Assembly: GCA_964632315.1 (NCBI GenBank)
Contig: CAZWEM010000074.1
Coordinates: forward strand, 1 to 13,846
DNA from: an uncultured archaeon
Lineage (GTDB): Archaea; Asgardarchaeota; Lokiarchaeia; Sigyniarchaeales; SOKP01
Direction of reading: 5' to 3'
DNA length: 13,846 nt
The notes below the pieces were generated by a model. The model did no database searches. It was not told the DNA's origin and saw only the letters and a list, made by a program, of their open reading frames with translations. Within the stretch, counting starts at the first letter, position 1. Each line of letters opens with the position of its first letter. This document shows positions 869 to 13,846 of the stretch, piece by piece. A program made the translations under genes and the position numbers.

Positions 869-2383
869 TCAAGTGCCGCTTTGTGTGAGCAGCCGAAACA
901 CTCTTCTGAAGTTCTCCCGATGCCCCGATCTGAGGAAGTGGTCCGAGATCCAGAGACCGGTGAGGTAGACGGACAAGCCCGTTCCGGAGAGCAGCGCCAG
1001 CTCCCACGTTCCCGGCACGATGCCCCAGCGCTGCAGAGTCACGACGGCGGAGACAGCGACAAGCGCTGCGATGACCGGTGAGCTCAACATCCTCACCACT
1101 TCGGCGAGCCGAACCCCAGTCAGCCGCAGGAAGCGAGGCCATGTGTACAGTTGCGTGACGAGGGTCAGGAGGCGTGCGTAAACCGCCCCAAGAATACCAA
1201 ATCCTGCGACTAGAGGGACAAGGCCTAGGGCCAGCACGAGAATGTTGAGAAGCGAAGCCTTGGTCTGGATGTCTGGCCGTCCTGCGGCCAGGAACAGAGA
1301 CCCGAAGTTCGCGGTCAGAGATCGTACGGCTCCAGATATCAATAGGAGTTGGAAGGCGGGAATCATCGGCGCCCATTTCTCCCCAAGCACGAAACGGACG
1401 ATCTGGGGTGCGAGGGCGAGCAATCCAGCGGCGACCGGCAGCGACACCGTGGACACGAGACCCAGCGTGCGGAAAACCGCAGCGCGCAACCTCTCCCGAT
1501 CATCGCGCACCTTGGAGAAGGCGGGAAACGTAACCTGGGAGACCACGAGCGTGACCTCGGTTGCCGCCATCCCAGACATCCGCGAGGCCATGTTGTATAA
1601 ACCGAGAGAGCCCGCTTGCAGCATGCGTCCTACCACCGCGGTGTCCAAGCTCTGCACTAAGTAGTTGAGCACCCGGGTCGAAAAGACCCACTTGCCGTAA
1701 CGACCGAGCTCAAGGGCCAGCTCTCGTTTGAACCGGAGTCTCGGTCGAAAGGGATGAATCACCCACGACATAACGGTTTGGGTAAGCTGCGCCGCGAGAA
1801 ACCCCCAAGCCAACGCCCAAGCATTACGGAGCACGACGCCTGCGGCGATCGAAACCACCACGTCCGCCAGTGACGTCGCCAACTGGTAGATGGTCTGCTT
1901 GCGAAATTCCAAATCCTTCTGAAAGTAGACCACTCCGATGTTGGTGAGTCCGCGTACGAGCAGTCCCCCGGCGATTAGTCGCAACAACGGTGCGGCTCCG
2001 GGCTCTCTGAAGAACGTAGCGATCGTTGGGGCGGCTGCCACGAGGACTAGCGCCAGCAGCCAGTTGCGGACTATCTGGACAACCCACGCCGTGTCGAAAT
2101 AATCACTTATCTCATCGTCCGCCTTGTGAATGAGTGCAGCCTCGAACCCAGTCTGTGAAACCGTGTCTAGGAGGGTGAGCCCGAGGAGAGCGATCGCGAA
2201 CAGCCCGAAGTCATTGGGGGAGAGCAGCCGGGCCAGAACCACTGTTCTTGCGAAGGTGATGAACCGACCCAGCAGCCGCCCGACAAGGACCCAGACGCCG
2301 CTGCGAACGGCTTTCTCGGATACAGTGCCACTCGAGCCTACGAGGCCGTGCAGCAATCGGGCGAGGTCTCTGTAAATCGGCAC
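869..2383 (-). CDS. wzx: Wzx-type polysaccharide flippase (PST/MOP family, WzxC-like lipopolysaccharide biosynthesis protein)
   Basis: 504 aa with many hydrophobic segments. Signature stretches: 'VLARLLSPNDFGLFAIA', 'TGFEAALIHK', 'FQKDLEFRK', 'LGLYNMASR', 'VTFPAFSK', 'VLGEKWAP'. GGAG lies 9 nt upstream of the GTG start. Confidence 0.93.
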   Translation of the reverse strand: MPIYRDLARLLHGLVGSSGTVSEKAVRSGVWVLVGRLLGRFITFARTVVLARLLSPNDFGLFAIALLGLTLLDTVSQTGFEAALIHKADDEISDYFDTAWVVQIVRNWLLALVLVAAAPTIATFFREPGAAPLLRLIAGGLLVRGLTNIGVVYFQKDLEFRKQTIYQLATSLADVVVSIAAGVVLRNAWALAWGFLAAQLTQTVMSWVIHPFRPRLRFKRELALELGRYGKWVFSTRVLNYLVQSLDTAVVGRMLQAGSLGLYNMASRMSGMAATEVTLVVSQVTFPAFSKVRDDRERLRAAVFRTLGLVSTVSLPVAAGLLALAPQIVRFVLGEKWAPMIPAFQLLLISGAVRSLTANFGSLFLAAGRPDIQTKASLLNILVLALGLVPLVAGFGILGAVYARLLTLVTQLYTWPRFLRLTGVRLAEVVRMLSSPVIAALVAVSAVVTLQRWGIVPGTWELALLSGTGLSVYLTGLWISDHFLRSGHRENFRRVFRLLTQSGT

Positions 2384-2510: not shown

Positions 2511-4184
2511 TCACCGCCCGCCAGTCCTCCGGAGCACGGCATTCGCTGCTCGCCGAATCGAGGGAAGCGAGTTGGCAATCGAGGCTGCCCTCCGTTTCGC
2601 GGAGCCGAGCGCTGCGTTCCTGACAACGTGCAATCGACCTCGGACGCCCGTTGGCGGAAAGTTGTAGCGGGCACGGATCGCCGGATCGGTGAAGTCGGTG
2701 TCGAAGTGCTTGTACTGCACTCTGCCTGCTTCCACGCGAACCCCGCCCTGGGCCGCAAATGCCAGTACATTGTTACCTTCCAGCTCCCGGTAGCCGGCCT
2801 TGACCAGGTTCGCCACTCCATCCACCGTCGCCTCGCCGGCTCCTGGATACGGTCCGGGCCGCAGCAGCGGTCGGAAGTTACCTTGGTGGAGGTTACCGAA
2901 GATACATCGATAGCGACTGTAGGGGGGGAAGACGTTGGAGTCATATCCAACGTTGCCGACGTTGTCGACCACGAAGAAGTGGAGGCCCGAGTATGTCAGA
3001 TCTCCGGTATGGCGCTGCTGGTTGAGCATGTAGGCGATGCTGCCGTCGTCCATGAACCGAGCGACTAACCGACGCTGCTCATCGGTGTAGGCGCGGGGAT
3101 AGATTGCTCCCTTGTATCGTCCCTGGAAGCGCCTCAGGTGAACCGGGAATCCATGGCGGGCGAAGAAGGCGATGTCTTCCTCAAGGCGGTCCAGGAAAGG
3201 GGGATAGGCCACGTAGACTATCGGCACCTCGATTCCGTGCTCGCGGAGCAGCTGCGCCTTCGCAAGGAAGCTCTCCCGGTCGATGGTGAGGGGATGAAAG
3301 GACGCGTTGATGTGGAGCCGTCCGTCCCGTGCGAGCCGCGTGCGGACAATCTCCTCAACAGGACCCGCGATGTTGGTGGTCATGCGGAGCTGCCAGGCGG
3401 GCTCTGACGCGACCATGTCGAGGATGTCGAAGAACGCACCGCCAATGGAGGGCTCACCGAATGCGAGGTAGAGGATGAGTGCTTGATCTCCGAACGAGTT
3501 CTTGAACGACGCATGCCACTGCTCGATGGTCCCGAAGAAGGCATCCGAGGGATTCCAGAGGCCTACGTAATAGCAGTAGGGACAAGCGTAGTTGCACGTC
3601 GCTTCGCGGCCGTTGTATTGCCACAACACGGTGGTGTGACGCCGCGGCAGTACGTGGAGGAGGGTTTCGCACACGAGTTCATTGCCGGAGTCGTTGGGAT
3701 GAATGGCGTCACGCAGCCCACGCCGGGCCGGCCATATCTTGTCGCGCCAGACGGCATTGACGTCGGCGATCTTGACCCGTTTCTCGAATGCCAGCTCTCG
3801 AACTGCCTCGCTGTAGCTGTCCACCTCACGGTTGCTTGCGGCACGATGGCCCTCGGTCACAGGATTGAGGGTCATGGGAAGCACCCGCACCCCGGCAGCC
3901 ACAAACGCATCTATCATCCCACCGACGTTCCGTTTGTACTCGCTCCTGCTCACCCCCTTGCGCCAGTCATTCATCCCGAAGCAGATTACAGCTACGTCGG
4001 GTGCCGTGCCCACGACACTGTCGAGACGAGCCATCCCGTCCCGGGATGTCTCGCCCGAGATCCCGGCGTTGATGAGCTCGACACCCACCTCTGGCGCGTG
4101 CTCCTGCACTCGATGCTCTAGCTTTGACGCCGCGCCCTTTATGATCGAGTCACCGAAAAGCAGTATGCGACAAGGATTCTCCAC
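2511..4184 (-). CDS. fused SGNH/GDSL hydrolase (N-terminal) and radical SAM domain (C-terminal) protein, 557 aa
   Basis: All four SGNH blocks are present: FGDSII (4146-4154), NAGISGETS, CFGMNDW, DAIHPN (3699-3710). They are followed in frame by CNYACPYC (CxxxCxxC, 3573-3596), AFGEPS, MTTN and NASFHP. I moved the start from 4376 to GTG 4184 because the longer version overlaps the pyruvyl transferase by about 160 nt and GGAGG lies between that gene's stop and 4184. Confidence 0.9.
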   Translation of the reverse strand: MENPCRILLFGDSIIKGAASKLEHRVQEHAPEVGVELINAGISGETSRDGMARLDSVVGTAPDVAVICFGMNDWRKGVSRSEYKRNVGGMIDAFVAAGVRVLPMTLNPVTEGHRAASNREVDSYSEAVRELAFEKRVKIADVNAVWRDKIWPARRGLRDAIHPNDSGNELVCETLLHVLPRRHTTVLWQYNGREATCNYACPYCYYVGLWNPSDAFFGTIEQWHASFKNSFGDQALILYLAFGEPSIGGAFFDILDMVASEPAWQLRMTTNIAGPVEEIVRTRLARDGRLHINASFHPLTIDRESFLAKAQLLREHGIEVPIVYVAYPPFLDRLEEDIAFFARHGFPVHLRRFQGRYKGAIYPRAYTDEQRRLVARFMDDGSIAYMLNQQRHTGDLTYSGLHFFVVDNVGNVGYDSNVFPPYSRYRCIFGNLHQGNFRPLLRPGPYPGAGEATVDGVANLVKAGYRELEGNNVLAFAAQGGVRVEAGRVQYKHFDTDFTDPAIRARYNFPPTGVRGRLHVVRNAALGSAKRRAASIANSLPSIRRAANAVLRRTGGR

Positions 4185-4213
4185 CTGTGAGAGTCCACCC
4201 CTCCAACCGACCG

Positions 4214-5329
4214 CTACCTGACAAGCGCCAGCCACCTGTCCACGGCTGCTCGCACCCGCGAGCGGTGAGCCACGACGGCGCGGACGATGCTCGTCGACCG
4301 TGACGCGTAGGACCCGAAGGTCTCGCCCACGAGCATACCCAACTCCTCGTGGCTGAGCGACTCCAACGGGACACAAAAATGCTGCTCGCCAAGGTCAGTC
4401 ATGAATCCGTGCACTTTCGGCAAGTAGGAGAGACCGATCATGGGGACGCCCCGAACCGCCGCGAGGATCAACGAATGAAGGCGCATGCCGATCACCATGT
4501 CACAGTGGTCTAGGATCTCCAAGAACTCCCGCGCAGAGGGCGCCTCCGTGAGGAGTCGTGCCGCATCAGAGTGACGCATTTTGTCTATCACGCGCCGACA
4601 GACCGACACATCATCGTCGCCAGCGGTGACCCGCAGCGGAACAAATAGGAGGGTGGCACCCCGGTTGCGGATCGCCTCATCCGCGGTTCTCGCAACGGCC
4701 TGCAGCACAGCTTCGAACGCCCCTTCCGCCTCCACGAAGTGCCCCTTGGAATACCAATGCCGCATGCAGACCATGATCCGTGGTGGATCGGCCGGAGCCT
4801 TCCTAGCGGGAATATCTTCATCCCCTAGCAGCAGTGCGAGGTCGCCCGCCACGTGGATCTCACTTCCCACACCGATTTCGGTGAGCAAATCCCTAGAGCA
4901 GCAATCGCGCACGGTGAGGTCGTCAACTCCTTGCAGCCCCCGCGCAAGCTGACGCCGAGACTCGGGGAACCTGATGCTCTCAACACCGACGCAGGCGAGA
5001 GCTGTCGGTCGTCCCAGGCGACGGGCCAGTCGGAGGTTTGCCAGCCAGCCGCGGAGTGAGCTCGAGTCGATACCGTAGTCCTTCAACAACCCACCACCGC
5101 CGAGGAGGAAAAGGCGCGCGCCCAGGATCGCGCCGGCACGACGCGCCATGGAGGTCCGGCGCGAGTGAAGTGCAGACAGTCCACCTTGTCGACGCACCTC
5201 CCCCGGACGCATCGTGAACACCAGCGGCTGGACGGACGCCCGAGCGCGCAAGGCGCCCAGTAACGCTTCGAGAATTGCCTCGTCTCCGAGGTTGCCGTGA
5301 CCGTAAAAACCCTCGATGACGACCTTCAT
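4214..5329 (-). CDS. polysaccharide pyruvyl transferase family protein (CsaB/WcaK-like)
   Basis: Motifs GFYGHGNLGDEAIL, LLGGGGLLKD, LTVRD, GMRLHSLILAAVRGVPMIGLSYLPKV are characteristic of PS_pyruv_trans proteins. Confidence 0.93.
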   Translation of the reverse strand: MKVVIEGFYGHGNLGDEAILEALLGALRARASVQPLVFTMRPGEVRRQGGLSALHSRRTSMARRAGAILGARLFLLGGGGLLKDYGIDSSSLRGWLANLRLARRLGRPTALACVGVESIRFPESRRQLARGLQGVDDLTVRDCCSRDLLTEIGVGSEIHVAGDLALLLGDEDIPARKAPADPPRIMVCMRHWYSKGHFVEAEGAFEAVLQAVARTADEAIRNRGATLLFVPLRVTAGDDDVSVCRRVIDKMRHSDAARLLTEAPSAREFLEILDHCDMVIGMRLHSLILAAVRGVPMIGLSYLPKVHGFMTDLGEQHFCVPLESLSHEELGMLVGETFGSYASRSTSIVRAVVAHRSRVRAAVDRWLALVR

Positions 5330-5388
5330 CTGGACCCAGAGCCTTCCTGCGTCTGATCAGGCGGCGTTTATCATCGCGAATGGATCGC

Positions 5389-5435
5389 GTGCTGCCTCGC
5401 CCCCATCCCATCTACAATACTCGAGACGCGAGGTG
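5389..5435 (+). promoter_or_regulatory. possible sigma70-type -10 element and RBS in the divergent intergenic region
   Basis: TACAAT at 5413-5418 and GAGGTG at 5430-5435 precede ATG 5445. No convincing -35 element. The region 5330-5444 lies between two divergent starts, so promoters are expected here. Confidence 0.3.
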
Positions 5436-5444
5436 CTGATCGGC

Positions 5445-6509
5445 ATGCGATGCGCTTTAGTGGAGCTCAACCCCTTTCACCGCGAGACGCTGCCGACGTT
5501 CGTTCTGCTCTTGAATCAGCTCGGCGTCACCGTCGACGTTTTTGCGCGCGGGGATACGCTCTCCCGGCGCCCTTTCGCACCATGCCCAAGTCTCCGCTAC
5601 AAGGCTCATTCGATCGACGACCTGCCGATGAAGCTGTGGTTCGAACTCCGCCGACTCGCCGGCTACGATTTCGTCGTTGCCAACTCTGTCGAACCGGTCT
5701 GGATCCTCCGGAAGCTGGCCCGGTTCCAGGTCCCGATCATCGGGGTGGTCCACAACTCGGTCCTGATGCTCGAGGATCCGGAGTACCAGGCCTTCTTTTC
5801 GCCCGCGTCGCGGCGCCCGCTGGTCCTCGCACCTCACATCGCGTCGTGGCTTGGGGGTCGCGCAGCAGTCAGTTGGGTGGCGCCGGTGCACGTGACGGAG
5901 GATCTTCGTCTCGACACGGCGAGAAATGACTGGCTCTGTGTCCAAGGCACAATCGACTTCAGACGCCGCAACTACGGATCGCTGATAGTGGCGGCTAGTG
6001 AGCTTGAGGCTGCGGGTGTGCCAAGCTTTTCCGCCATCGTCGTCGGAAAGGACTCTCACCTCGACGGTATGCGATTCCGGAGGGAGGTAGCGCGGCGGGG
6101 TCTGGAGAAGATCATCGTACTCGATGGCGAGAAGTTCGGCTACGACGACTATCTCGAGGCCGTCATGACAGCCGCATTCATTCTGCCCCTGGTTGACTCA
6201 ACCTCGCTCTTGTTCCAGCCATACTTCGGAGAGAAGGTCACATCGTCACTTTCCATGGCGCTCGCCACCGCGCGCATTCCGGTGGTCCACGCGGCGATCG
6301 CGAGGCTCTACGGGATCGAGGGAATGGCCGTGACGTACGAGGACGGAGGCCTGTGCGACGCCATCCGCCGCGCCATGGCTCTCCCAACCGATGAACGGGG
6401 AGAGATGATATCCGGCCTCCGGGAGTGCCGCGCGTCACTCCTCAGGAACTCCCTCAGCAATCTGAGGGCCGTCATGGAGGACCTCGCCCTCGACCCACGC
6501 CGACGGTGA
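5445..6509 (+). CDS. putative divergent GT-B fold glycosyltransferase (354 aa)
   Basis: Start moved from 5316 to ATG 5445 (GAGGTG 9 nt upstream; 5316 overlaps the divergent gene). Two Rossmann-like halves are suggested by 'LNQLGVTVDVF', 'YDFVVAN', 'PIIGVVHN', 'LCVQGTIDFRRRNY', 'AIVVGK' and 'SSLSMALATARIPVVH'. The canonical GT4 Ex7E motif is absent. Confidence 0.6.
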   Translation: MRCALVELNPFHRETLPTFVLLLNQLGVTVDVFARGDTLSRRPFAPCPSLRYKAHSIDDLPMKLWFELRRLAGYDFVVANSVEPVWILRKLARFQVPIIGVVHNSVLMLEDPEYQAFFSPASRRPLVLAPHIASWLGGRAAVSWVAPVHVTEDLRLDTARNDWLCVQGTIDFRRRNYGSLIVAASELEAAGVPSFSAIVVGKDSHLDGMRFRREVARRGLEKIIVLDGEKFGYDDYLEAVMTAAFILPLVDSTSLLFQPYFGEKVTSSLSMALATARIPVVHAAIARLYGIEGMAVTYEDGGLCDAIRRAMALPTDERGEMISGLRECRASLLRNSLSNLRAVMEDLALDPRRR

Positions 6510-6611
6510 CAAGTTGCCGAGGAGAACTGCCCTGAAACGGCCGCGCGTGACACTTGCCGGCGGAAAGGAACGCCAGTCGACCACGGGAGGTTGCGGTCAT
6601 CTGGGGACTAC

Positions 6612-7547
6612 GTGCCGCGCGACCCACTGGGCACCGGCCGCGGTGACGGAACCGGAAAGGCGGGCAGGTTGCAGCCCCTTGTGAGCATCGTCGTCCCCGT
6701 CCGTAACGATCCCATCGGCGTCCGGAGATGTGTGGGGGCGTTGCGGCGTCAATCCTACTCCCGCGAATGTCTCGAGATCCTGGTCGTCGACAACGATTCC
6801 ACGAACGACACCTGGGAGGTGATTTGCGAGCTGGGCGTCAAGGCGCTGCGCGAGACGTCGGTTCGGAACTCCTATGCCGCAAGGAATCGCGGGCTGGCGG
6901 AGTCCAGCGGCGACGTCCTGGCCTTCACCGACGCCGACTGCGTGCCTCACGAGCGATGGGTGGAGGCCGGCGTGCGCTCGCTGCTCGACGAGGGGGCGCA
7001 CCTAGCAGGTGGCCGGGTGCGCTTCGATCTCGGGTTCAAGCCGACTGGCGCCGAGATCTGGGACTCGATCACCAACATGCAGATGGCCGACAGTATCCGT
7101 GCGCGTGGGGTGGCCAAGACCGCCAATCTGTTCGTTCGACGAGAGGTTGTCGATGCCATCGGTGCTTTCCCCACGGCAGCACCCTCCGGCGGCGACGTCG
7201 CATGGACGGCACGCGCGACGGCGGCTGGATTTCGACTCGTGTATGCAGCCGATGCGGAGGTTCGCCATCCCACACGCCGCCTCGGGGCTCTCGTGCGGAA
7301 ACAGATGCGGGTCGGCGTCGGGCAGGCCTCGCTGCTCGGCGCCGCGGCCGGCACACGGCAGGCTGTCTCCCTGCTGATGCCCTTGCGGCCGTCAGAACTT
7401 CGCGCCAGATTGCGCGCTAAGGGTCAAGAGGTGTCTTCGGCGAACACGCTGCGGGTGTGGACGGCGGCATCGATCTGCCGTGCGGCGACCGCCGCCGGGA
7501 TCCTGTTCGGCCTTCCGCGCCTGCGTTCCGAGGAGACCGACGGGTGA
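6612..7547 (+). CDS. glycosyltransferase family 2 (resembles haloarchaeal AglI-type GT2)
   Basis: Motifs VSIVVPVRNDP, ILVVDNDS, SYAARNRGL, AFTDADC (DxD), TANLFVR, SGGD and VRHP. The start is uncertain: TTG 6591, GTG 6612 and TTG 6669 are all in frame. Confidence 0.9.
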   Translation: MPRDPLGTGRGDGTGKAGRLQPLVSIVVPVRNDPIGVRRCVGALRRQSYSRECLEILVVDNDSTNDTWEVICELGVKALRETSVRNSYAARNRGLAESSGDVLAFTDADCVPHERWVEAGVRSLLDEGAHLAGGRVRFDLGFKPTGAEIWDSITNMQMADSIRARGVAKTANLFVRREVVDAIGAFPTAAPSGGDVAWTARATAAGFRLVYAADAEVRHPTRRLGALVRKQMRVGVGQASLLGAAAGTRQAVSLLMPLRPSELRARLRAKGQEVSSANTLRVWTAASICRAATAAGILFGLPRLRSEETDG

Positions 7548-8635
7548 GGCTCGCCGACGTGATCGAGGCGACCGCGGAGGCCGGTCTGGTTCTGCAGCGG
7601 TCAGACGGCTCGTTCCCGGCAGGGCACAACGGCCCCTATGACGATGCGGAGACACCTCTGCGCAACACGGCCCACTGGATCGTGACCGTGCTCAAGGCTT
7701 ACGAGCTGAACGGGAACGCGTCGTTCCGCGAGGCGGCGCGGCGCGCCAGCAACATCCTGCTGGCGCCTGATGCGCGCCCCAGTGGGGCGACCTTCCTCTG
7801 TCGGACCAACCCCGCGAAGGACTCCGCCAACGGACTGATCGGGCAGGCGTGGGTCATGGAGGCCCTGGTGGAGCTGCACCGGGTGCTCGGCGACGATCGT
7901 GCACGCGAGGTCGCCGCCCAGGTCTTCCTCCTCCACCCTTTCTCGCCAGTCGGGGGCCTGTGGCGCCGCGTCGACGTGGATGGGAGCCTCCTCACCGTCG
8001 ACCCCACCTTCAACCACCAGCTCTGGTTCGCGGCGGCCGGAGCCCTGCTCGACCCGACCGGGGACACGGAGATCGGAGACCGCGCTGGTCGGTTCCTGGA
8101 CGGAGCCCTTGCCCAGACCTTCGCGGTGCGCCGCACAGGGAGGATCCGGCACGAGGCTGTCCAGCCGTGGCTGGCCCGAGCCAGGGGCCTCCTGGTTGGT
8201 CTCAAGTACCCTCGGACGCGCCTCAAGCAGAGGCGGGCCCAGGATGCCCGGGAGGTGGGCTACCACGCCTTCAACCTGTACGCCTTCGCCATCCTCCACC
8301 GCTGGCGGCCCGAGCATCCCCTGTGGCGGTCCCGTCGCTTCCTGCGTGCACTGCGCTTCGTGGCCCGAGGAGGGCTCGCCGGAGCACTCTCCAACCCCTT
8401 CGGCGGCCCGTACAACCCGGTGGGATTCGAGGCGGCGCTCGCCATCGAGACGTTCCAGCCGCTGCTGTCGGTCCGCCTCGGTTCGCCGGTGGAGTGGATC
8501 GAACGCCAGCTCGAGCACACCTTCGACGCTTCCAGCAACCTGATGAACCGCAACACGCCGGATCCTCAGACCCTCGCCGCCAGGTTCTACGAGCTGACCC
8601 GGCTGCGGGCGACCGACATGTTCATCGAGCTGTGA
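7544..8635 (+). CDS. aglQ: AglQ-like protein (putative alpha/alpha-barrel sugar epimerase or isomerase), 363 aa
   Basis: GTG 7544 overlaps the GT2 stop (GTGA), with GAGGAG 8 nt upstream. Motifs AEAGLVLQRSDGSFPAGHNGPY.D.ETPLRNTAHW, NGLIGQAW..EAL, VFLLHPF, DPTFNHQLWFAA, GYHAFNLYA, PYNPVGFE and AARFYELTRL match, from memory and end to end, Haloferax volcanii AglQ. Confidence 0.85.
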   Translation: MRLADVIEATAEAGLVLQRSDGSFPAGHNGPYDDAETPLRNTAHWIVTVLKAYELNGNASFREAARRASNILLAPDARPSGATFLCRTNPAKDSANGLIGQAWVMEALVELHRVLGDDRAREVAAQVFLLHPFSPVGGLWRRVDVDGSLLTVDPTFNHQLWFAAAGALLDPTGDTEIGDRAGRFLDGALAQTFAVRRTGRIRHEAVQPWLARARGLLVGLKYPRTRLKQRRAQDAREVGYHAFNLYAFAILHRWRPEHPLWRSRRFLRALRFVARGGLAGALSNPFGGPYNPVGFEAALAIETFQPLLSVRLGSPVEWIERQLEHTFDASSNLMNRNTPDPQTLAARFYELTRLRATDMFIEL

Positions 8636-8649
8636 GAGGGCCGACCGGT

Positions 8650-9603
8650 TCAGAGCCGGCATAGGTCCCGACACGAGCCCGCGGCACGGACGACCTTGGC
8701 CATCCAGACGACGAACCATGCTCCGACCAGACGCGCCGCGGGCAGCCGGCCGACCCGCCGCCGAGCCCGCGCCGGCAAGCGGTGCGGGGGCATGGGCAGG
8801 AAGCTTCGCGCGGCGGCCAACGCCATCTTCGGGGGCTTCATCCCGAAGGCCGCCCACACCCCAGGGGTCCCCCGACCGACCCGGTACTGCTTGCGTAGCA
8901 GCGCACCGAGACGGCGGGCCGGGTACGAGACCACCGCGCTCGGTGCGTAGACGAGGGTGAACCCGGCATCGGTCGCCCGCCGGGTCCAGCGCATGTCGCC
9001 TCCGGAGCGGAGACGGGCATCGAAGGGCCCGATCGCCTCTAACACGCGTTGGCGCACGAAGAGGTTGCAGGTCATGCAGGCGCGATGAGCTTCGATGCTG
9101 GCCTCCGCGTCCACATTGAGGATTGCGTCCGCAATCTCTCCCAGAGTGGGAGGGTCGGACGTGGCGAAGGCGGACTGCCCGCCAGCCAGGTCCGCACCGT
9201 GCTCGCGGAGTGCCTCCACGCCGCGCTCAATCCAGTCGGCTGCGGGCACGCAGGTGCCGTCGGTGAAGGCGACGATCTCGCCCCGCGCCATGGCCAGTCC
9301 GGCGTTGCGGGCGGCGTAGGGACTGCGTACCGTGTCCTCCCTCAGCAGGGTGACAGGATACCGGGCAATGACATCCCGTGTTGCGTCTCGGGAGCCGTTG
9401 TCCACCACGATGATCTGGGTATCGGCCCGGGAGTAGGTCTGGGCCAACAGACCCTCCAGGCAGGCCTGGATGGCAGGTGCCGCGTCGAGCACGGGCACCA
9501 CCACGGACACCGACGGCAGCTGCACGCCATCCATCTGCTCCATCATACGGGCCTGTGTCTCAGACGGCTCGGCACCGGTCGAGCCGGTGCGATGCCGGCT
9601 CAT
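8650..9603 (-). CDS. glycosyltransferase family 2, paralog of 6612-7547, with non-canonical DxD (317 aa)
   Basis: Start moved from 9987 to ATG 9603 (ATGA overlap with the upstream stop; ATG 9546 is an alternative). Motifs VSVVVPV, IIVVDNGSRDAT, PYAARNAGL, AFTDGTC, TCNLFVR and SGGD. Confidence 0.88.
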   Translation of the reverse strand: MSRHRTGSTGAEPSETQARMMEQMDGVQLPSVSVVVPVLDAAPAIQACLEGLLAQTYSRADTQIIVVDNGSRDATRDVIARYPVTLLREDTVRSPYAARNAGLAMARGEIVAFTDGTCVPAADWIERGVEALREHGADLAGGQSAFATSDPPTLGEIADAILNVDAEASIEAHRACMTCNLFVRQRVLEAIGPFDARLRSGGDMRWTRRATDAGFTLVYAPSAVVSYPARRLGALLRKQYRVGRGTPGVWAAFGMKPPKMALAAARSFLPMPPHRLPARARRRVGRLPAARLVGAWFVVWMAKVVRAAGSCRDLCRL

Positions 9604-10871
9604 GGCGGCGCTGCGAGCTCGAGCCCCGCCGCCGCGAGGGCATGAAGGAAACGAGGACGGACGGACTCTTCGCTGAACTGCCGAGGGGGTTCGACCTTGG
9701 CGTCGGGCTGCGCGCACCGGGCGAGAAAACGGGCCACCACGACACCCGCCTCCGAGGAGTCGGGGGCCAGGGTCCACACCTGGGAGAGCGTGCGGGTCGC
9801 CTCCCAGACGGCGCTGCCCCGGGGCGCGACCGCCAGGATGGGCCGGCCCGAGGGCAGGTACTCGAACAGCTTGGCCGGCAGCGACGCCGTGGAGGAGGAC
9901 AGCAGCAGCAGGCCGTCCGCGGCCCGGATCAGCTCCAGGATCGCGGCCCGGTCCACCGGCGGTCGCAGCTCCAGCTCCCAGCCCCACGCTGCCAGCCGCG
10001 GGCGCCAGGCGGCAACCGCCGCCCGTTCCTCGGCGAGCAGGTTGCCCACCACGAGCACCCGGCCGCGGGGTCCCGCCCCGGCCTCGATGCCATCCAGCAG
10101 GGGCCTGAACAAATCCTCCACGCGGCGCTCGGCGCGGGAGCCGAAGAACTTGCCTGCGTACAGCAGGGTCAGGGGATCGTCCGGTCTCCGGCGTTGCTCA
10201 CCAGTGGAGGCATCCATGACTTTCGGGTAGCAGTTGGTCACCACCGAGACCTTGTCCGCGACCCACGGCAGCCGCTCGGCGAGCAGCCGCCACCAGGCTT
10301 CGGAGGTCACCAGGACGCCCTCGGCCTGCCGCAACAGGCGGGCTTCCAGCCGCCGGTGCCGCAGCCGCTGCAGTGCCAGGGTGTTCAGCAGCGGGATCAC
10401 GGGCTCGTCCAGCCAGCCGTCGCGCAGATCCATCACGAACGGTGCCTGGAGACGGCGTGCCAGCCCCGCCCCGGCCACGTGCACCGACTCCGGCGGGCTC
10501 GAGGCGAGGACCATGGAGGCGCTGCGCCCTGCTTCCAGAGCCAGGGGATGTTTCGCCGCCCTGCGCGCCCACGCCACCAAGGGGTCCGGCACCATCAGCA
10601 GGTAGGCGACGGTGCGGCGCAGGCGGTTGGTGGTCCGGGGCGGGAGCGCCGCCCGCCGGCCGGGAGGTGGATCGGAGAAGAAGCCGATCGGGTCCCGGAT
10701 CGTGACCACCTGCCCGAAGCTCGTGCCCTCCACACCATCCCGGGATCCGGCCCGCAGGACCAGGCTCCCCACCCCCTCCTCGCCGAGCCAGCGCACGAAA
10801 CGCTCGACGCGGGTCCAGCCGAGGTGGCCGGGCTGGCCCCAGTAGGGCGCCGGGATCACGACGCGCTTCAC
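9600..10871 (-). CDS. glycosyltransferase family 4-like (GT-B)
   Basis: Motifs APYW, VPDPLVAW, ASSPPESVH, MDLRDGW, VVTNCY, LLYAGKF, ADGLLL and LPAKLFEYLPSGRPILAV. The GTG start overlaps the upstream TGA (GTGA). Confidence 0.88.
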   Translation of the reverse strand: MKRVVIPAPYWGQPGHLGWTRVERFVRWLGEEGVGSLVLRAGSRDGVEGTSFGQVVTIRDPIGFFSDPPPGRRAALPPRTTNRLRRTVAYLLMVPDPLVAWARRAAKHPLALEAGRSASMVLASSPPESVHVAGAGLARRLQAPFVMDLRDGWLDEPVIPLLNTLALQRLRHRRLEARLLRQAEGVLVTSEAWWRLLAERLPWVADKVSVVTNCYPKVMDASTGEQRRRPDDPLTLLYAGKFFGSRAERRVEDLFRPLLDGIEAGAGPRGRVLVVGNLLAEERAAVAAWRPRLAAWGWELELRPPVDRAAILELIRAADGLLLLSSSTASLPAKLFEYLPSGRPILAVAPRGSAVWEATRTLSQVWTLAPDSSEAGVVVARFLARCAQPDAKVEPPRQFSEESVRPRFLHALAAAGLELAAPP

Positions 10872-12712
10872 GGATTGCCGTCCCGCGGCGCGGCCACCGG
10901 CCCCTCGCCGAGCACACCCTCGAGCTCACGGACGTGTCCGGGGGGCGCTTCGAGGAGGTCCCGCTCATAGGCGGACAGCCTGCGGCCGGCCCCCAACCGA
11001 GCCGCGTCGCGCGCCCGCTCAAGCGCGTCTCGAGCCGCTTGGCTGCGCCCGAGATCCAGCTCGACACGGCTGATGAACAGCCAGCCACGGACGAAGTGCG
11101 GCTCCTCCCGGACCGCTCTCTGCGCCAGCTCGAGGGCCCGTGAGGAGTCCCCGAGCATGCGTTCGAGCTGGGCCCAGCGCAGCCAGGACCACGGGAGATG
11201 GGGCTCGAGCTCCGTCGCCCGCCGGTACCCCTTCCTGGCGCCGGCGATGGCGTCAGGCCAGCCTCCGAGGTCCTCCACGATGCGGGCGTTCACGAGACCG
11301 TAGTTCGACCACACGCGGGCGCTGCCGCCGTGGAGTGCGGTCGCCCGCCGGCTCCAGCTCAAGGCCTCTCCGGCCGTCTCCCAGCCCCAGCGCGGCTCAG
11401 CCAGGAGGTGGCGGGTGGCCCACTCCGCGGGCTCCGCGAACCAGGGATCCGCGCGCAGGCTCGTCCGCGCCAGGTCCGTGCTGGAGGTACCCTCCCACCA
11501 GAGCCGGCGAGCGTAGGCCGGCTCCGCCGCTCCCCACAGCAGAAGCCACATCACCGCCAGCCCCGCCGCCAACCGCACGCCTGGCCGCGCGGGCCACCTT
11601 CTCGCGGACTCCGCCTGGATCTGGCCGGTCGCCGGGAGCAGGCTTCCGACCAGCAGCGCCCACGTCCAGAGCACGACACCCTGGTCCAGGAAGTCGTGGA
11701 ACAGCGCCATGACGGCCAGAGCCGCCAGGGCCACGACGCCGGCCCGCCGTTGCTCGAGCCCCTGCCGGCGCAGCTGCCAATACCCCAGAAAGATCGCCGC
11801 CGCAGCCAGGGCAGCGCCGACGATCCCCGTCCGCACCGCCAACCCGAGGACCGTCGATTCCGCGCTGCCGATGACGTGCTGGTGAATGGCGATGGCCTCC
11901 GGGCGGGCCAGCCGCACCACCCCCGTGGCGTCCTCGAGCCAGCCCGGCCCCACGCCGAGCACGGGGTGAGCGGCCGTTAGGCTGCCCACCGCACGCCAGA
12001 TGGCGGGCCGATACCACGCCAGCGCATCCGGATGGGAGAGGAAGCGCCAGGTCGCGATCGCCGCCGCACCGGCCGCGGTGCCCGCCAACCCCAACCACCG
12101 CAACCGCCCCCGAGGGAACGCGACCGCCGCGGCCGCCACCAGGGCCAGGAGGCCGGCTCGTGAGCCTGTCGCCGCGATCGCCGCCGTCGCCAACAGGGCC
12201 GGCAACCAGCGCCAGCGCCCGAGGCTCCTCCCGACGTCGGACCACGGCACGGCGAGAGCGGGGATGACGAGCGCGATGGCCACGTTCGGGTTGCGGTACA
12301 TTCCGCCGAGGCCCAGCGCCCCCGCGGCCAGATTCGCCCCCAGCACCCAAGCCGCCGTCAGGCCCGCGCCGGCCGCCACCAGGGCGAAGGCCGCGCCGCG
12401 AGCCTTCCTGCCGCTGTGGCGGGCGAGCACGAGGATCGCCCACGCCGCAAGCCAGGTGGTGACCGTCTCCTTGGCGCCCATGGGATATCGCTTCGCCACC
12501 ACGGCGGACACCACCGCCCAGCCCAACACTCCGAGGCCCAGCCACTCCGCCGTCGTCAGGTGGTCCCGCCAGGTTGCAGCCGCCCAACCGACGATGACGG
12601 CCAGGGCAGCCGTGACGACGAGCCGCGGGGTCGGTGCGAAGGCGCCCCCCCAGGCGGTCGCGACGAGCACGAGCGCCGCCGCCGCGATCGCGGCGCGGTC
12701 AGTTCCGCGCAT
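10868..12712 (-). CDS. O-antigen ligase-like (Wzy_C) membrane protein with C-terminal TPRs
   Basis: Multi-TM N-terminus with GGMYRNPN, TGSRAGLLAL, RPAIW...HPVLGVGPG and AVRTGIVG. About three TPR-like repeats at the C-terminus (YRRATELEPHLPWSW, AQRAVREEPHFVRGW). ATG 12712 has GAGG 9 nt upstream; GTG 12718 is an alternative start. Confidence 0.82.
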   Translation of the reverse strand: MRGTDRAAIAAAALVLVATAWGGAFAPTPRLVVTAALAVIVGWAAATWRDHLTTAEWLGLGVLGWAVVSAVVAKRYPMGAKETVTTWLAAWAILVLARHSGRKARGAAFALVAAGAGLTAAWVLGANLAAGALGLGGMYRNPNVAIALVIPALAVPWSDVGRSLGRWRWLPALLATAAIAATGSRAGLLALVAAAAVAFPRGRLRWLGLAGTAAGAAAIATWRFLSHPDALAWYRPAIWRAVGSLTAAHPVLGVGPGWLEDATGVVRLARPEAIAIHQHVIGSAESTVLGLAVRTGIVGAALAAAAIFLGYWQLRRQGLEQRRAGVVALAALAVMALFHDFLDQGVVLWTWALLVGSLLPATGQIQAESARRWPARPGVRLAAGLAVMWLLLWGAAEPAYARRLWWEGTSSTDLARTSLRADPWFAEPAEWATRHLLAEPRWGWETAGEALSWSRRATALHGGSARVWSNYGLVNARIVEDLGGWPDAIAGARKGYRRATELEPHLPWSWLRWAQLERMLGDSSRALELAQRAVREEPHFVRGWLFISRVELDLGRSQAARDALERARDAARLGAGRRLSAYERDLLEAPPGHVRELEGVLGEGPVAAPRDGNP

Positions 12713-13846
12713 CGCCACCCGCCTCGAGCCGATCCAGCAGATCCGCGAGCGCGGTGGCGCGCTCCCTCACGCGCGGCTGCTCCACGGCCGCCTGCCAGGC
12801 GTCGCTCACCGCCGACGGCGCGTGGCCGAGCGCCAGCTCCAGCCGGCTGGCTAGCGCGGCCAGGGAAGCCGACCTGGGCCGGAGCCACCGCACATCGTCC
12901 AGGACCTCCAGGGCCCCCCGCTCCAGCTCCACGCGTCCGCTCTGCAGGGCCGCGGTCCCCGCGGCTGTCACCGGCGGGAGTCGCCACGGCGCAAGGTTCG
13001 CGGCACGGACGGCGACTGCGTACCTGGCCGCCGGATCGGTCGCAACGACGCTCCCGACGACGACGCTCGTGAGGTGCAGCAGGGAGAGACCGACCGCCAG
13101 CGAAGTGGCTCCCAACGCCGCCAGACGCAGGCGAGGGTGATCGGCGGGGCCGGGCGCCGTCGCGCGCACCATCGCGACGCCCCAACCCACGAGCACGGCC
13201 CAGGGCAGCGCCACTCCGCTGCTGTAGAAAGAGAAGTCCACAAGGTTGGCGAGAGGGATCACCGCGATGGCCGCCGTCAGCGCCGGCGCGCGGGGCCACA
13301 ACCGTCGCAGCAACCGTCCCAGAGCGAGCGCCGCCGCCACCGCCAGCAGGATACCGACCACACCGAGCTCGGCCGCCCACTCAAGGGGCATACAGTGGGC
13401 GTGAGCCGGCACGTTGCCCACCGCGAAAGGTACCGCGCGGGCAGCCTGCCCGAACCCGCCCACTCCCACCCCGGTCAGCGGCGCCTCAGACCACACCCAG
13501 GCGGCGGTGCGCCAGTTGTCGGCGCGCAGGGCGAGGGGCTCCAGCTTGGCGAGGTCGGGCCTGGACACGAAGGCGCCCGCCAGAGCCGCCGCGAGCAGAG
13601 CCACCACGACGACAGCGACGAGGCTCCGCCTCCGACCCGGGACCACGACCAGACACGTGCCCATGCCGAGGGCGATGCCCACGGGCGAGTAGGTGAGGGC
13701 CAGCCCCAGCCCGCACAACGCCGCCGCCGCCCCCCATGCCAGGCCTTCCCGAGAGCGGCGCACACCGGCCACGAGCAGGGGAAGTGCCGTCGCCAGCAGG
13801 GCGGCCAGGTGGCCGGGCACCAGCAGCGACGCGAAGGCGCGGCCGC
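12699..13846 (-). CDS. O-antigen ligase-like (Wzy_C) membrane protein with TPR-like tail; 5' end outside the window
   Basis: The frame stays open past 13820 to the window edge (GRAFASLLVPGHLAALL, the typical RAFxxxxxPxHLA segment). Also LTYSPVG, LRADNW...APLTGVGVGGF, PAHAHCMPLEWAAELGVVG and NLVDFSF, followed by a TPR-like helical tail. Confidence 0.85.
   Translation of the reverse strand, partial: GRAFASLLVPGHLAALLATALPLLVAGVRRSREGLAWGAAAALCGLGLALTYSPVGIALGMGTCLVVVPGRRRSLVAVVVVALLAAALAGAFVSRPDLAKLEPLALRADNWRTAAWVWSEAPLTGVGVGGFGQAARAVPFAVGNVPAHAHCMPLEWAAELGVVGILLAVAAALALGRLLRRLWPRAPALTAAIAVIPLANLVDFSFYSSGVALPWAVLVGWGVAMVRATAPGPADHPRLRLAALGATSLAVGLSLLHLTSVVVGSVVATDPAARYAVAVRAANLAPWRLPPVTAAGTAALQSGRVELERGALEVLDDVRWLRPRSASLAALASRLELALGHAPSAVSDAWQAAVEQPRVRERATALADLLDRLEAGGDARN

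Follow-up and report, generated by a model that had tools for sequence, protein, structure and literature searches.

An AglQ/Agl32-family protein coupled to an AglE-type glycosyltransferase in a bacterial surface-glycan locus and its predicted role as a hexuronyl epimerase

What does a gene known from haloarchaeal N-glycosylation do in a locus that looks like one for a bacterial surface polysaccharide? The question is raised by a 13,846-nucleotide stretch of DNA (contig CAZWEM010000074.1 of assembly GCA_964632315.1, filed under an uncultured archaeon and here called the window), in which a family-2 glycosyltransferase (GT2) gene, GT2a, overlaps the start of a gene resembling haloarchaeal aglQ. 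An original prediction, made from the sequence alone, described the two as an AglI-type GT2 coupled to AglQ in a bacterial glycan locus, suggested that the pair might reflect exchange between archaea and bacteria, and proposed that it epimerises a hexuronic acid on the growing glycan. We followed these proposals through the family, the fold, the gene neighborhood and the host of the locus.

An AglQ-family gene and its glycosyltransferase partner

By sequence comparison, the second gene of the pair is a full-length member of the AglQ/Agl32 family. Its 363-residue product aligns over 362 residues with the AglQ ortholog of Haloferax denitrificans (45% identity, E 5e-104), a homology search returned more than 800 relatives of equal length, and tblastn against one genome per species found relatives in 183 genomes, H. 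denitrificans ATCC 35960 among them. The protein has no Pfam match at E ≤ 0.01, no NCBIfam match and no match by sequence in the PDB; because the true Haloferax ortholog is likewise without an NCBIfam match, that library evidently has no AglQ model. The H. denitrificans numbering reproduces the residue list published in 2013 for Haloferax volcanii AglQ (H34, E37, T38, K52, K93, W104 and others), so that T38, K52 and K/R93, the positions found functionally important by mutagenesis (PMC3827465), can be equated with T37, K51 and K92 of the window protein, all three of which are kept. Comparison of 81 family members drawn from both domains gives 14 invariant positions and another 39 conserved at 95% or more, and the window protein retains every one of them. 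The invariant polar residues include E106, N157, Q159, Y240, E296, D340 and Y349, and H44, H158, H241, R87 and R347 are near-invariant. The full-length match and the intact functional residues uphold the original identification as AglQ. The motifs quoted for the pair are also present (PVRNDP, SYAARN and SGGD in GT2a; GLIGQAW, TFNHQ, GYH and PYDDAE in the AglQ-like protein), and the segment PYHDPE, given for H. volcanii for comparison with the last of these, does occur in the H. denitrificans ortholog. The gene is thus an ordinary member of a known, little-studied family: among the bacterial relatives, those for which NCBI gives a family name carry the label 'agl cluster protein AglQ', and the identification is sound rather than surprising.

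The glycosyltransferase had been called AglI-type, and here the comparison with Haloferax leads to a different assignment. GT2a aligns with the H. denitrificans GT2 that overlaps aglQ over 297 amino acids, C-terminal tail included (42% identity, 226 bits), as against 220 amino acids with the AglI-position GT2 of the same cluster (36%, 137 bits). The H. denitrificans locus (L016) reads, in order, GT2, AglF (NCBIfam equivalog, 446 bits), a 479-residue protein without an NCBIfam match, a 483-residue flippase-like protein, GT2 (5081-5995), AglQ (5992-7107), an FkbM methyltransferase and AglJ. The published H. volcanii order is aglJ-aglP-aglQ-aglE-aglR-...-aglF-aglI (PMC4335974, Table 1), and the genes of the H. 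denitrificans agl cluster are reported to stand in that same order (PMC5867893); because the locus matches this order, the GT2 overlapping aglQ sits at the aglE position. In a tree of 98 GT2s from 81 AglQ loci, 34 of the 34 that abut AglQ upstream fall into one clade (support 92), which also holds GT2a, the second GT2 of the window (GT2b) and the Haloferax AglE-position gene. The AglI-position gene belongs to another clade (support 80), together with most of the GT2s located downstream of AglQ. Judged by alignment and tree alike, GT2a is an AglE-type GT2 of the same subfamily as the transferase that abuts aglQ in Haloferax. Its C-terminal tail, hydrophobic and conserved, probably serves for association with the membrane.

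The junction between the two genes is a four-base GTGA overlap (Table 1), as originally described. The original prediction drew the GT2 frame from 6612, and that frame is indeed open on the plus strand (from TTG 6591 or GTG 6612), but the likely start is GTG 6681 (MSIVVPV...), since 24 of 24 aligned homologues begin at this position and since the 91% nucleotide identity to L001, the metagenome-assembled genome (MAG) of an uncultured Holophagae bacterium, sets in at 6691, after a stretch (6465-6690) that shows no similarity. The AglQ-like frame is open back to 7457; its homologues all begin at 7544. The overlap suggests translational coupling of the two genes, and their close spacing is more than an accident of the window. 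When adjacency was counted from match coordinates, a same-strand GT2 ended within −14 to +17 bases of the AglQ start in 35 of 82 AglQ loci (81 of them distinct), and the exact four-base overlap was found in 13, that of H. denitrificans among them.

The association extends well beyond adjacency. When all frames of the AglQ loci were clustered, the AglE-type GT2 family appeared in 70 of 81 loci, at about 2.3 copies per locus, and was the only family broadly linked to AglQ; the next real family, a flippase, was present in 17 of 81. The AglQ and GT2 trees agree locally, each joining the window with L001, then with L002 (a Sulfomarinibacteraceae MAG of the Acidobacteriota) and then with L003/L025, and cyanobacterial, spirochaete and methanogen/Atribacterota groups recur in both. 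At least five natural fusions join an AglQ domain to an AglE-type GT2, each on one to five contigs. All are metagenomic proteins, with the order GT2-AglQ in P0123/P0269 (706 residues) and P0271 (684 residues, five contigs) and the order AglQ-GT2 in P0229/P0270, P0272 and P0273. A further fusion, P0274 with 12 member sequences, joins AglQ to a GT4/GT1 transferase (AglQ-GT4). Because the fusions occur in both orders and in independent assemblies, we argue that the barrel protein acts on the same molecule as the transferase. A complex prediction for GT2a and the AglQ-like protein, both entered as alignments, scored 0.00, which speaks neither for nor against binding and was not used.

Two loci elsewhere in the family differ in their surroundings. 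The AglQ gene of an anammox/Nitrospirota subclade does not adjoin a GT2, and in Ca. Brocadia pituitae (L006, 4098-8207) it lies between an asparagine-synthase-like gene and a gene for a 'sugar-transfer associated ATP-grasp' protein. The latter arrangement may connect the gene with amidation of uronate carboxyl groups or their decoration with amino acids. In Haloferax the other neighbor of AglQ is the FkbM-type uronate methyltransferase AglP, and we infer that these neighbors, in Haloferax and in Ca. Brocadia, may modify uronate carboxyl groups. The context thereby hints at uronates, as do the TuaD/AglM-like UDP-glucose 6-dehydrogenases encoded in the two nearest relative genomes.

Fold and predicted reaction

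What reaction would such a protein carry out? The AlphaFold model, built on a 30-sequence alignment (predicted local distance difference test score, pLDDT, 94.7; predicted template modeling score, pTM, 0.93), shows the paired helices typical of an (alpha/alpha)6 barrel, with the conserved motifs at or just before helix starts. Foldseek matched the model to epimerases and isomerases of the AGE (N-acylglucosamine 2-epimerase) family and to glycoside hydrolase (GH) families GH76 and GH88, all at probability 1.00 with template modeling (TM) scores of 0.55-0.66, and the nearest solved structure is that of a cellobiose 2-epimerase (5ZIG). The modeled fold is therefore that of a single AGE-type (alpha/alpha)6 barrel. 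The AGE superfamily (N-acylglucosamine 2-epimerase, cellobiose 2-epimerase, mannose isomerase, YihS) shares this fold with the AglQ-like protein, whereas their sequences are related only below threshold, with no Pfam match and with a profile of 30 members reaching cellobiose 2-epimerases in the PDB at E 0.33-0.54 only. AGE enzymes also act at C2 of neutral sugars, unlike the uronate C5 reaction considered below.

The original prediction saw loose parallels between GLIGQAW, TFNHQ and GYH and motifs of the D-glucuronyl C5-epimerase (GLCE) domain. These are not borne out by sequence, because the protein has no Pfam C5-epimerase (PF06662) match, and the same lack of relationship holds for GLCE, for the bacterial GLCE-like D-glucuronyl C5-epimerase and for dermatan sulfate epimerase 1 (DS-epi1). 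The AglQ-like protein is single-domain, without the beta-sandwich or hairpin domains of GLCE and DS-epi1. GLCE appeared neither in the Foldseek list nor among the best 50 VIA matches, an absence that is no evidence of differing folds. In the relative Agl32, none of the catalytic residues of GLCE, DS-epi1 or the AGE enzymes, including the AGE His/Glu set, is reported to be conserved (PMC13308652).

Fold alone would also accommodate a trimming enzyme, that is, a glycoside hydrolase or a lyase-like protein (GH76, GH88 or GH105-like) with an editing or proof-reading function on the glycan as it grows. In the fold searches the scores of GH76 mannanases, unsaturated glucuronyl hydrolases and polysaccharide lyases come close to those of the epimerases, and PSI-BLAST started from AglQ reached the GH88 and alginate lyase families (PMC3827465). 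However, the window protein has no signal peptide and is predicted to be soluble and cytoplasmic, and genes of the family stand in biosynthetic loci and are fused to transferases. The phenotypes of studied relatives also point away from trimming: on loss of AglQ the glycan stops growing instead of becoming longer (PMC3827465), and loss of Agl32 exchanges L-iduronic acid (IdoA) for D-glucuronic acid (GlcA) with the mass unchanged (PMC12624080). We judge a trimming role to be quite improbable.

Genetic and biochemical work on haloarchaeal relatives supplies the more specific hypothesis. Deletion of aglQ in H. volcanii stops the N-glycan at the trisaccharide, just before the AglE step, and AglQ (HVO_1523) is soluble (PMC3827465), without a signal peptide and with the important residues kept, as in the window protein; the Haloferax gene, too, lies directly downstream of a GT2 of the same subfamily with a four-base overlap. 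The Halobacterium salinarum protein VNG1058H rescues the aglQ deletion (PMC4335974) and is itself Agl32, a D-glucuronyl C5-epimerase that makes IdoA at position three of an N-linked tetrasaccharide (PMC12624080). Agl32 turns glycan-bound GlcA into IdoA (PMC12624080, PMC13308652) and needs its target to be flanked by GlcA on both sides (PMC13308652). The hexuronate epimerase role that had been proposed for the window gene fits this literature; the window protein is likened to Agl32 by family, and its activity is predicted.

We therefore favor, as probable if far from secure, a model in which the pair forms a tailoring cassette of a Wzx/Wzy-type surface-polysaccharide locus in a Holophagae-like host. 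By analogy with AglE, GT2a would add what is probably a hexuronic acid, from a UDP-uronate, to an undecaprenyl-linked repeat unit, and the AglQ-like enzyme would epimerise a uronic acid already embedded in the lipid-linked glycan. The likeliest reaction would be a cofactor-free inversion at C5, turning GlcA into L-IdoA or making the corresponding change in another uronate, in which the C5 proton beside the carboxylate is removed and then returned from the opposite face. The uronate substrate, the carbon inverted and the place of the epimerase before or after GT2a are all read across from the archaeal members. The studied systems differ in the last respect: Haloferax needs its epimerase before the AglE step (PMC3827465), whereas the Halobacterium enzyme acts after the fourth sugar.

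Several observations weigh against this model. The evidence for activity in the family comes from archaeal members only, and among (alpha/alpha)6 barrels hydrolases and lyases are commoner than epimerases. The donor sugar of GT2a cannot be read from 42% identity, and a Pfam scan found no UDP-glucose dehydrogenase or other uronate-specific gene in the window. AglQ is described as making galacturonic acid (GalA) and Agl32 as making IdoA, so that specificity either varies or is unsettled within the family, and it cannot be transferred from either enzyme by phylogeny because the window copy lies outside the haloarchaeal clade. Finally, no known catalytic constellation of an epimerase was found in Agl32 (PMC13308652), and the chemical mechanism is for that reason unproven.

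A rival reading is an epimerase or isomerase of another kind, one that acts on GalA, mannuronic acid or N-acetylmannosaminuronic acid, on a neutral sugar at C2 in the manner of AGE and cellobiose 2-epimerases, or on a soluble nucleotide sugar before transfer. The closest folds are those of C2 epimerases and aldose-ketose isomerases, the window copy is in neither haloarchaeal clade, AglQ and Agl32 are given different products, and the authors of the Agl32 study were at first unable to exclude action on UDP-GlcA (PMC12624080). On the other side, tight coupling and fusion to glycosyltransferases fit the product or acceptor of a transferase better than a free nucleotide sugar, and the AGE catalytic residues are those reported as not conserved in Agl32. 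We consider this alternative unlikely, though it is, with the trimming role, one of the two main rivals of the C5-epimerase model.

Locus, host and origin of the window copy

The features of the window are collected in Table 1. Pfam content and composition identify it as a high-GC (guanine plus cytosine) glycan locus with Wzx/Wzy-type genes. The archaeal agl N-glycosylation module is a cluster anchored by AglB/STT3, whereas the window has a flippase, Wzy_C proteins, GT2 and GT4 genes and a pyruvyl transferase instead; no STT3 oligosaccharyltransferase was found in a Pfam scan of 10 of its large frames, and it differs from the Haloferax cluster in being without AglB, AglP, AglF and AglJ. The lipid carrier in the host is presumably undecaprenyl phosphate, as opposed to dolichyl phosphate in Haloferax. 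Given the Wzy_C proteins, the glycan is likely to undergo ligation or polymerisation of the O-antigen type.

Table 1. Genes and junction elements of the 13,846-nucleotide window
Feature	Position	Strand	Basis or remark
Flippase, Polysacc_synt_3	869-2383	-	Pfam; context, left half of locus
SGNH + radical-SAM-like fusion	2511-4376	-	Pfam; left half of locus
Pyruvyl transferase	4214-5329	-	Pfam; left half of locus
GT4-like gene	5316-6509	+	Pfam; left half of locus
GT2a, AglE-type family-2 glycosyltransferase, 288 aa	6681-7547	+	Pfam Glycos_transf_2, 1.3e-21
Shine-Dalgarno-like GAGGAG	7530-7535	+	Within the end of GT2a, 8 bases before the AglQ-like start; read from sequence
GTGA start/stop overlap	7544-7547	+	GT2a stop TGA 7545-7547, AglQ-like start GTG 7544-7546
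AglQ/Agl32-family (alpha/alpha)6-barrel protein, 363 aa, predicted cytoplasmic hexuronyl epimerase	7544-8635	+	
GT2b, second GT2, convergent with the AglQ-like gene	8650-9987	-	Pfam Glycos_transf_2, 6.5e-25; GT2 tree
GT4-like glycosyltransferase	9600-10871	-	Weak Glyco_transf_4 match, 6e-4; context
Two Wzy_C (O-antigen ligase/polymerase-like) membrane proteins	10868-13820	-	Pfam Wzy_C, TPR; context

Which organism does the locus belong to? The contig has a GC content of 67.1%, against 32.9% in the genome under which it is filed, and its tetranucleotide profile correlates with that genome at −0.58, where the other contigs of similar size, two excepted, reach 0.97-0.996. The filed assembly holds 17 contigs above 45% GC (125 kb, window contig included) and its contamination is given as 8.6%. 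The contig is mis-binned, and inferences that treat the filed genome as the window's own are unsafe for that reason. Results on nucleotide-sugar dehydrogenases, on copy number and on occurrence in 3 of 400 genomes of the filed phylum and 0 of 41 of the genus were accordingly set aside as data on a foreign genome.

The true host is probably a Holophagae-like bacterium of the Acidobacteriota. The nearest relative is L001, which positions 6691-13846 of the window (7.16 kb) match by blastn as one block at 91% nucleotide identity. In L002 the order GT2-AglQ-GT4-Wzy-Wzy is kept at 50-56% amino-acid identity, and the Wzy_C genes are syntenic in both relatives. The GT4-like gene at 9600-10871 is likewise kept alongside the GT2-AglQ cassette in both, at identities of 83% (L001) and 54% (L002), which exceed those of the opposite-strand frame. 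The AglQ gene is rare: sampling 400 other genomes from the phylum of the Holophagae MAG turned up none that carries it.

To the left of the matching block the picture changes. The GT4-like gene at 5316-6509 is 73% identical to L001, with no match left of 5443, and a recombination-like breakpoint lies just upstream of GT2a (5443-6691). L001 has an extra GT4-like gene at this point, and the left 5.4 kb of the window is without a counterpart in the L001 flank. GC is 0.60-0.63 in the left half and 0.70-0.76 to the right of the breakpoint; the GT2a and AglQ-like pair (about 0.68-0.70) is in line with the remaining right-hand block. In L001 itself, the Wzy_C-TPR gene (9330-11177) matches the window protein in three abutting pieces, and two nucleotide-sugar dehydrogenase genes of the same genome have internal stops; rather than real pseudogenes, these breaks probably reflect frameshifts from errors in a long-read assembly.

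If the host is bacterial, was the pair recently acquired from haloarchaea as an N-glycosylation module, as the original prediction had entertained? The same GT2 and AglQ pair with the same four-base overlap is found in the Haloferax agl cluster, and the family has, on the evidence of its trees, crossed the domain boundary in other lineages, since methanogen copies group with an Atribacterota copy in both the AglQ and the GT2 tree and are joined by Thermodesulfobacteriota in the former. The position of the window copy, however, speaks against such a transfer. It belongs to an 11-sequence bacterial set, where it groups with Acidobacteriota, Chloroflexota and Actinomycetota copies (Shimodaira-Hasegawa-like approximate likelihood ratio test, SH-aLRT, 98), with the two Acidobacteriota MAGs as its closest kin, whereas ten haloarchaeal copies form a separate clade (93). 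Forcing the window and L001 together with the haloarchaea costs 48.9 log-likelihood units and is rejected by the approximately unbiased (AU) test (p 0.03). The identity to Haloferax is no higher than that to many bacteria, the window carries no AglB/STT3 or other agl genes in its Wzx/Wzy context, and the GC of the pair fits a right-hand block that is itself closely identical to a Holophagae MAG. The tree, read without a root and hence without a direction for the ancient transfers, shows nothing to suggest that the window copy came recently from archaea, and we regard acquisition from haloarchaea as very improbable.

The remaining genes add detail to the locus. GT2b is a paralogue of GT2a from the same AglE-type clade and is 88% identical in amino acids to its L001 counterpart. 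It carries TDGTC where GT2a has TDADC. Invariance across a 25-sequence alignment of AglE-type GT2s is confined to the first Asp and the Cys of the motif; the place of the second Asp is often taken by G, T or N (DAGC, DATC, DSTC, DINC), and because this position varies its loss in GT2b need not mean inactivity. The longest GT2b frame has about 150 extra N-terminal residues of uncertain status; the GT2 domain begins at residue 161, which leaves the start of the gene uncertain. The 621-residue frame at 2511-4376 on the minus strand combines a GDSL/SGNH hydrolase domain (9.9e-26) with a weak radical-SAM match (1e-3), an unusual pairing in a glycan locus. TPR repeats are carried by the downstream Wzy_C protein.

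Distribution of the family and its meaning

Animal glycosaminoglycans have IdoA as a signature sugar; reports of it from bacteria are rare, and only one bacterial GlcA C5-epimerase, a GLCE-like enzyme, is known to have been described. The AglQ/Agl32 family was shown to epimerise GlcA only in 2025 (PMC12624080). The 2013 AglQ paper noted homologues in 'a few bacterial species' (PMC3827465), and published homologue analyses have been limited to archaeal, specifically haloarchaeal, proteins (PMC3827465, PMC4335974, PMC12624080, PMC13308652). Among the papers listed by a literature search for AglQ, none dealt with bacterial homologues of the archaeal protein, most being on the gliding-motor AglQ of Myxococcus, which is unrelated.

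Searched exhaustively with a profile, 1.84 billion representatives yielded only 1,079 proteins at E ≤ 1e-3 and, at E ≤ 1e-30, 751. The family is thus small (about 750-1,080 clusters) and rare within phyla, yet present in at least 20 phyla of bacteria and archaea. The original prediction had allowed that AglQ homologs might prove widespread and vertically inherited in bacteria; they do occur in many bacterial phyla, but they are rare and patchy and do not look uniformly vertical. The picture that results is of GT2-AglQ as a mobile, patchily distributed cassette. Natronococcus sp. A-GB7 (L040/L048) and Natronosalvus hydrolyticus (L030/L056) each have two AglQ-family paralogues from different haloarchaeal subclades, and these pairs may match the published AglQ-like and Agl32-like clades.

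A broader proposition, which we put forward tentatively and with more doubt than the model for the window itself, is that the GT2 and AglQ module installs L-IdoA or another C5-epimerised uronate in lipid-linked surface glycans across at least 20 phyla. It would then be the main, hitherto unrecognised, bacterial route to IdoA, with an active site unlike those of GLCE, DS-epimerase and AGE enzymes, and the pool behind haloarchaeal AglQ and Agl32. For the window, the outcome is mainly a corrected annotation: the GT2 is AglE-type and not AglI-type, the lineage is bacterial and the contig is mis-binned. What gives the finding its value is that it directs attention to carriers of a newly understood epimerase type that are bacterial and in part cultured. 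Cultured carriers include Algoriphagus pacificus, A. limi and A. kandeliae, Parapedobacter luteus DSM 22899, Vasconcelosia minhoensis LEGE 07310 and Hyella patelloides LEGE 07179. Should the bacterial members prove active, a second epimerase type, presumably unrelated in structure, would be represented by about a thousand sequence clusters; these could help to predict which unusual uronic acids occur in environmental polysaccharides and could serve the chemo-enzymatic synthesis of heparin-like sugars on short substrates, and the cultured bacterial carriers would offer easier access to the catalytic mechanism.

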